A DNA stretch of 64,000 bases from Escherichia coli (GTDB lineage Bacteria > Pseudomonadota > Gammaproteobacteria > Enterobacterales > Enterobacteriaceae): assembly GCF_003334335.1 (NCBI RefSeq), contig NZ_QOWQ01000003.1; one strand, given 5' to 3'. The notes beneath the pieces were generated by a model. That model did no database searches. It had not been told where the DNA came from and saw only the letters and a list, made by a program, of their open reading frames with translations. Positions 12,759-13,281 of the stretch are shown piece by piece (the stretch's first letter is position 1; each line of letters opens with the position of its first letter). The position numbers and the translations under genes are program-made.

Positions 12759-12920
12759 TTTATATCCTTATTTGCAGTGGTGACCCACACGAAAGATCAC
12801 ATACAAAGAAAAATTTGTTTATTAACAGTTCATTGCGAAACCATCTAGCCAACAAATGCTAAATTGGTTCGCAATCAGGTACACAAATGAAAGACATTAA
12901 CCTCTCACCTTCCACCCGGT
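12759..12920 (-). promoter_or_regulatory. thrS leader carrying the translational operator (tRNA-Thr anticodon-arm mimic)
   Basis: Position immediately upstream of the thrS start; established knowledge of thrS autoregulation. Fold not verified by eye. Confidence 0.45.
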
Positions 12921-13281
12921 TGAGCGATGTTAACACTAAAAAAAGGGAGATTGTACCTTTCCGTTTCACATTGATTCGATTCGCAATTCGTTTGTAGTGA
13001 GTACACCAGCAAAACGCTTAAAGAACAACTGATAACATCACGGTGCGTCTGAAAGGTTTACTGCGAGCGGATTTACAGCAGCATAAACTGAATCCAGCAA
13101 AGTTCGTTGCGTGATTTGGCGGTAGTATTTTAAACGCTCATGAGATTAATGACGAAGTGGTCATATCACAATGATAAAAGTGACACAATTCTTATAACAA
13201 TTTTTCGTGCACATTTCGTTCTGGCGATAATAATTAATCATCATCCTCAAAACCTCCAGATATATATAAGGCGAACAGATT

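Follow-up and report, generated by a model that had tools for sequence, protein, structure and literature searches.

The window analysed here is a 64,000-nt stretch of Escherichia coli DNA that runs along the + strand of the K-12 MG1655 genome, such that adding 1,789,812 to a window position gives the MG1655 coordinate. Our subject is the 523-bp divergent spacer at 12759-13281 (MG1655 1802571-1803093), which lies between thrS on the minus strand and the arpB/espL1 pseudogene on the plus strand. The locus is made up as follows.

10830-12758, minus strand: thrS, with its ATG at 12758.
12759-12920, minus strand: the 162-nt thrS 5'UTR, a leader that carries the ThrRS translational operator (start-site maps, fold and low diversity).
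12976-13281, no strand assigned: E. coli-specific distal spacer, which probably flanks the arpB/espL1 islet on its upstream side (cross-species comparison).
13282-15181, plus strand: the arpB pseudogene, a gene that is intact elsewhere as the type III effector gene espL1 (annotation).

An earlier note on this DNA had reported the spacer as 12759-13281, and these boundaries are exact: the thrS ATG is at 12758 (-), and the arpB ATG at 13282 (+) closes the spacer on its far side. In other strains espL1 is intact (632 aa) and uses the same start ATG as K-12 arpB, and the length of the spacer is therefore not an artefact of the annotation of a pseudogene. The RefSeq annotation is empty across 12759-13281, in agreement with the initial observation that no gene is annotated there. 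The same note called the spacer unusually long and AT-rich. It is indeed the longest of 12 divergent spacers within the 100 kb around it (86, 146, 160, 201, 203, 235, 286, 315, 332, 388, 445 and 523 bp), but it is no outlier in this series and 'unusual' overstates the case. At 37.9%, its GC content is below the 50% of the window, but values of 33-47% are typical of the 12 local divergent spacers, and the AT-richness is thus ordinary for intergenic DNA. Composition is also even along the spacer, with the leader, promoter-proximal and distal thirds each at ~38% GC. All 5426 complete E. coli genomes carry the spacer at 95% identity or more, and 5337 of them contain at least 80% of an 851-bp probe that spans it. 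Overall, the observation of a long spacer is real but ordinary, and the control region of thrS that occupies its proximal part has long been known. This region comprises the following elements.

12765-12770, minus strand: Shine-Dalgarno UAAGGA, which adjoins the domain 2 hairpin (sequence).
12771-12807, minus strand: operator domain 2 hairpin (-49 to -13) with loop UUCGUGU (predicted fold).
12832-12875, minus strand: operator domain 4 hairpin (-117 to -74) with loop AUUUGUUG, the K-12-type form designated 'type A' (predicted fold).
12876-12918, minus strand: 5'-terminal leader hairpin (predicted fold), with columns that are variable between species.
12927-12935, minus strand: extended -10 element TGtTAACAT of the main thrS promoter P1, with the start at 12920 (read from sequence).
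12921-12975, minus strand: block upstream of the P1 start, including GGTGCAtTC.CCCTTTTTTT, conserved across type-A genera.

The main thrS start site lies at 12920-12922 (-162 to -164) and is concordant in five sources. SMRT-Cappable-seq places it at MG1655 1802732, with 2341 and 1364 full-length thrS-infC-rpmI-rplT reads. Kim 2012 gives U00096.2 1800756 and a 5'UTR of 162 nt, the dRNA-seq of strain BW25113 by Romero 2014 reports a class I site at 1800757-8, and the 5'UTR is 163 nt long in RegulonDB and 162 nt in EDL933 Cappable-seq. The earlier estimate of ~160 nt for leader plus operator was consequently right; subtraction of the 162-nt leader leaves ~360 bp of spacer.

The leader folds better than shuffled sequence (z -3.25), and its diversity within E. 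coli is 0.0035 compared to 0.025 at the third codon positions of thrS, so that it is far more constrained than these positions. Domain 2 is near-invariant across all 80 Enterobacteriaceae loci compared and includes compensatory pairs. RNAalifold recovers 16 pairs in the domain 4 helix among 21 type-A species, several of them compensatory, and compensatory changes are thus seen in both helices across the 21 species. In the predicted fold, the two domains are connected by an unpaired, A/U-rich linker (domain 3, 12808-12831). Domains 2 and 4 resemble anticodon arms, to which free ThrRS binds, blocking the entry of the ribosome. Competition of ThrRS with the 30S subunit for the operator has been documented (PMC3858243, PMC9976931), and the hairpin at -49 to -13 agrees with the published domain 2 (PMC9976931, PMC3858243). 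When compared with the known operator and P1, a system of ThrRS autoregulation by mimicry of the tRNA-Thr anticodon arm described by the Springer, Ehresmann and Moras laboratories, positions 12759-12975 are the same element: the start at -162, domain 2 next to the Shine-Dalgarno sequence and domain 4 are all in place, and we find no difference. The remaining, distal 306 bp of the spacer fall outside that element. The proximal ~217 bp (12759-12975) are the control region of the thrS-infC-rpmI-rplT operon, served by P1 as an extended -10 promoter.

The sequence GTGTTA.CAT at P1 is invariant in 21/21 type-A species. Upstream of the -10 element, at 12936-12960, the block GGTGCAtTC.CCC and a T-run after it are conserved across type-A genera; as a -35 element this block is poor. 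This GC hairpin with T-run had been considered as an intrinsic terminator, a reading that was rejected because the stem is impossible in many species. The block may be a putative transcription-factor site, a UP-like element or a degenerate insulator.

The comparison of thrS loci from 80 Enterobacteriaceae species establishes where the thrS-associated DNA ends. The K-12 upstream region ceases to resemble that of E. albertii, Salmonella, Citrobacter, Lelliottia and Kosakonia at -213 to -220 (~12975), and the distal spacer (12976-13281) has no match in the 74 loci that are not of the E. coli type. Past ~12975, Escherichia sp. MOD1 alone matches K-12; its match ends at -417, and most of arpB is missing beyond that point. 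In the islet-free Escherichia clades, Citrobacter and Kluyvera, the ATG of yniD is found 288-306 bp from the thrS ATG, and homology between K-12 and the islet-free clades resumes at window position 15296, just upstream of yniD. The end of thrS similarity at ~12975 and the return of homology at 15296 therefore delimit a ~2.3-kb arpB/espL1 islet at 12976-15295. At the thrS locus arpB is absent from 79/80 other species (with only remnants in Escherichia sp. MOD1), and it has 39% GC versus 50% in the window. These patterns are consistent with horizontal acquisition of ~2.3 kb of DNA that would have been inserted between the thrS promoter and its ancestral divergent neighbor yniD. The distal ~306 bp would then be the upstream flank of the islet and not thrS DNA. 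A search for an integrase, a tRNA target and flanking repeats of the arpB islet found none.

The thrS-ydiY interval is a known island site, with SL1263-66 (lpxR, rfc) in Salmonella and arpB in K-12 (PMC5122947). Islets of the Salmonella SL1263-66 type occupy the same slot upstream of the thrS promoter, are likewise low in GC and lineage-restricted, and carry cargo that differs by genus. The E. coli cargo differs in being a single effector gene of the ShET2/EspL family, which K-12 has as a pseudogene, plus an upstream flank of ~300 bp that belongs to it. We infer that this flank houses the promoter of espL1 and serves no other purpose. In K-12, with its arpB pseudogene, the + strand of the flank appears to be transcriptionally silent.

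The cargo gene itself has decayed to different degrees. O157:H7 and some commensals keep an intact gene of 632 aa, K-12 has a frameshift, several strains retain a truncated copy of ~1 kb, and Escherichia sp. MOD1 has lost almost the entire gene. Its first and second codon positions are ~0.7 times as diverse as its third positions, a ratio that suggests relaxed constraint. Note also that arpB appears in a list of the SOS (LexA) regulon, with a ~2-fold rise late after ciprofloxacin (PMC11002266). Control by LexA through the spacer was considered and discarded: the spacer holds no CTG-N10-CAG box, and one weak box lies inside arpB at 15061-15080.

Sequence variation within E. coli separates the two parts of the spacer. 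In seven diverse genomes the diversity of the distal spacer is 0.034; the leader has 0.0035, and the third codon positions of thrS have 0.025. The distal spacer is thus at or above the third-position level and neutral-like. The conservation profile across Enterobacteriaceae that had been proposed as a check gave a divided result, with poor conservation beyond ~12975 but a conserved block at 12759-12975 in type-A genera. A search of plasmid and phage collections recovered no true homologue of the distal spacer; four 'plasmid' matches were set aside as E. coli records of 0.4-4.9 Mb, mostly evidently mislabelled chromosomes. The repeat search of the region returned short, chance-level repeats only and no direct repeats flanking the islet.

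The spacer is a repeated target of insertion sequences, and its distal part tolerates them. IS1/IS1A occurs in the distal spacer (~13139) of natural E. coli strains, and in one case prophage DNA adjoins espL1. IS2 has been found at MG1655 1802720 (window 12908), inside the leader near its 5' end, in an avibactam-resistant K-12 mutant (PMC12323667).

Transcription also starts just outside the conserved block. This second thrS promoter, P2, and two promoter-like matches farther out are the following.

12993-12995, minus strand: minor upstream thrS start site P2 (-235/-237), from three independent start-site maps.
13000-13028, minus strand: putative P2 core promoter, TTGTTC (13028-13023), a 17-nt spacer and TGgTGTACT (13008-13000), predicted from the sequence relative to the start site.
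13127-13155, minus strand: promoter-like match TCGTCA-17-TAAAAT, a guess for thrS from SELEX (consensus scan; Shimada 2014 Table 1).
13171-13198, plus strand: promoter-like match ATGATA-16-TATAAC, a guess for arpB (sequence; Shimada 2014).

P2 is an experimentally mapped primary 5' end on which three data sets based on 5'-triphosphate enrichment agree. In MG1655, SMRT-Cappable-seq places it at 1802805 (window 12993, -235), with transcripts that cover b1719-b1715, from thrS through pheM. The class II site at U00096.2 1800831 (window 12995) in the BW25113 dRNA-seq of Romero 2014 corresponds to P2, as does the 235-nt thrS 5'UTR of EDL933 Cappable-seq. The site is minor, being missing from the SMRT-Cappable-seq read-count table and from Kim 2012. 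It is located wholly in E. coli-specific DNA, 18 nt past the conserved block. Its putative elements, TTGTTC-17-TGTACT with an upstream TG, match 3/6 and 4/6 consensus positions and fall below the threshold of the scan; position 13027, in the putative -35 element, varies among E. coli strains. When folded, the segment from P2 to P1 had no notable structure.

We propose that P2 is a weak sigma-70-type promoter just inside islet DNA that reads through P1. Its output would be a minor, longer thrS operon mRNA, probably the only detectable effect of the flank on thrS. Class II of Romero 2014 denotes 5'-triphosphate enrichment that is not accompanied by a step in coverage, and given this status P2 could represent pervasive transcription that lacks a selected function. 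Secondary or spurious sigma-70 promoters in AT-rich acquired DNA provide a parallel: P2 is likewise minor, with a weak -35 element and an extended -10-like motif. However, typical spurious promoters lie inside a foreign gene or antisense to it, whereas P2 points outward into an essential housekeeping operon and is seen in both K-12 and O157:H7. The earlier suggestion that the spacer could hold additional promoters consequently stands for one minor start site on the thrS strand, at 12993-12995 in three data sets, but for none farther out. The same note had taken an absence of distal initiation combined with poor conservation as what would count against its proposals; P2 is an instance of such initiation, whereas everything beyond 12995 shows no initiation in the start-site tables covered here and is poorly conserved.

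Several other explanations of the distal spacer must be weighed. One is that it harbors an unannotated gene for a small RNA, as the earlier note had speculated, or some other structured RNA element. There are ~300 bp that contain no annotated gene, binding of RNA polymerase to the spacer is seen in vitro, and a start site is present at 12993-12995. A gene for a small RNA would be expected to have its own start together with a terminator or 3' end, but the transcripts from 12993 are full-length thrS operon mRNAs and not short RNAs, and neither strand of the region has an intrinsic terminator in scans of K-12 and O157. It would also be expected to be conserved beyond the neutral level, but the distal spacer has no homology outside E. 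coli and, within the species, a diversity no lower than that of thrS third positions. Folding of the distal spacer is no better than that of shuffles on either strand (z +0.15, +0.71), and a permissive Rfam scan of 12400-13700 returned no family above chance, the one spurious hit being to eukaryotic snoU13 (E 0.25). The tables of Romero 2014, SMRT-Cappable-seq and Kim 2012, which cover few growth conditions, list no start site farther out than P2 and no + strand start site for arpB. We therefore regard the small-RNA proposal as highly improbable. The proposal of a strong far-upstream thrS promoter, TCGTCA-17-TAAAAT at 13155-13127 with a leader of ~360 nt, is barely more credible. It derives from RpoD genomic SELEX, matches 9/12 consensus positions and is named as a constitutive thrS promoter in Table 1 of Shimada 2014. 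Binding of RNA polymerase holoenzyme to the spacer was observed in vitro in that study (RpoD SELEX-chip), but at a resolution that cannot separate a distal site such as 13127-13155 from P1 and P2. No start near -362 appears in the three K-12 data sets, all of which detect P1 and two of which also detect P2. The scan for sigma-70 elements and terminators that had been put forward as a check yielded no terminators and promoter-like matches at chance frequency (5 in the consensus scan versus 3.2 +/- 2.1 in shuffles). Moreover, the exact TAAAAT needs an extra T at 13128 that is specific to K-12. The hexamers TAAAAT and TATAAC owe their existence to this T and to an A at 13197, also private to K-12; neither base occurs in six other E. 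coli strains, whose arpB element reads TATAGC. Shimada 2014 prints the arpB element as ATGATG-16-TATAAC, and no start site in the three data sets (Romero 2014, SMRT-Cappable-seq, Kim 2012) supports this guess at 13171-13198.

Least probable of all is a small protein. ORFs of 31-59 aa occur on both strands, such as a 59-aa ORF at 13140-13319 (+) and a 36-aa ORF at 12887-12997 (+). However, the 59-aa ORF, which is the longest, has stops or a frameshift in 3/7 E. coli strains and has lost its ATG in 2 others, and where an ORF overlaps the leader, conservation of the leader RNA alone keeps it intact. RefSeq annotates no small protein here, though it includes validated ones such as YniD, and a + strand start site is again missing from Romero 2014, SMRT-Cappable-seq and Kim 2012. 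The most serious of these alternatives, and still an unlikely one, takes up the earlier note's idea of a silencer boundary: the distal AT-rich DNA would be where H-NS nucleates, or where its spread ends, so that the arpB islet is silenced and thrS protected. The gene arpB is low-GC (39%), lineage-restricted foreign DNA, the lack of an arpB start site in the three K-12 maps (Romero 2014, SMRT-Cappable-seq and Kim 2012) is consistent with silencing, and motif-like matches are dense inside arpB, with 10 in ~1.75 kb. The spacer, however, does not exceed other local spacers in AT content, contains a single weak motif match and shows no boundary mark in its sequence. The table of Shimada 2014 flags spacers bound by H-NS in SELEX and leaves the thrS-arpB spacer unflagged, and P1 is highly active even though it lies ~55 bp from the islet edge. 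In a count that allowed up to 2 mismatches, the high-affinity H-NS motif TCGATAAATT was ~3.5 times denser in arpB (13457-15211) than the window average.

Overall, we consider it probable, at roughly 85%, that the spacer is a composite of the known thrS control region (~217 bp) and the flank of the arpB/espL1 islet (~306 bp). The spacer is long because a 162-nt leader, a promoter and the flank of an inserted islet are joined in it, and no hidden gene is needed to account for its length.

The comparison of the 80 Enterobacteriaceae species revealed a further pattern in the control region. Upstream of domain 2, from about -52 (window 12810-12975, -52 to -220), the loci fall into two forms that cannot be aligned with each other. 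Type A, with the K-12-type domain 4 motif at -110, is present in 30/80 species. Type B, in which GCAGAGTGnAGC at ~-103 is the invariant part of an unrelated module, is present in 48. No species has both types and two have neither, one of these being P. diazotrophicus, which lacks both distal operator motifs. In type B, a long-range helix supported by covariation (UUAUCAACAGG/CCUGUUGAUAA and variants) closes a three-way junction; within it lie an inner helix, one variable hairpin and the invariant hairpin UUUCGC-AGAGUGAA-GCGGGA. The 8-nt loop AGAGUGAA contains GUG, as does the loop of domain 2. The -10 region is similar in the two types, and their leaders are equally long. An Rfam scan of one type-B locus returned nothing, a search of the literature, which was not exhaustive, found no description of type B, and the Kim 2012 rows listed have no entry for a K. 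pneumoniae thrS start site.

The operator types are interleaved among close relatives. Escherichia sp. E1V33 (type A) and E. whittamii (type B) are 99.7% identical over the first 600 nt of thrS, and in this comparison C. braakii (A) and C. werkmanii (B) are 98.5% and Atlantibacter subterranea (A) and A. hermannii (B) 96.8% identical. Type B was found in 0/5426 E. coli genomes. Since the two types stand beside thrS genes that are up to 99.7% identical, recombination at an island hotspot is suggested to swap operator modules. We hold with about even confidence that the unit of exchange is everything upstream of domain 2, from ~-52 outward, and that operator modules are swapped together with island cargo. 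C. braakii and Escherichia sp. E1V33 are nearly identical upstream of -220, beyond the type-A promoter block; judged by sequence, this suggests that both may hold the same non-arpB islet in the slot and that it travelled with the type-A leader. In Phytobacter ursingii, a 2.7-kb insertion at ~-50 (locus 1030-3950), which carries a 463-aa ORF on the opposite strand, separates the type-A distal leader and promoter (-2971 to -2780) from domain 2, which leaves thrS detached from domain 4 and from the promoter that normally serves it.

For the family, these patterns mark the slot upstream of the thrS promoter as a recurrent site of insertion and recombination in Enterobacteriaceae. For E. coli, a minor share of thrS-infC-rpmI-rplT transcripts from a promoter in acquired DNA would make P2 a small but concrete example of promoter capture. 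As a natural experiment, the two alternative distal modules, both supported by covariation, could tell which share of the tRNA-mimic operator is needed by ThrRS. If ThrRS binding extends to type B, the operator known from textbooks would be the less common solution, and cassette exchange would have produced the P1/P2 architecture of E. coli as a side effect.
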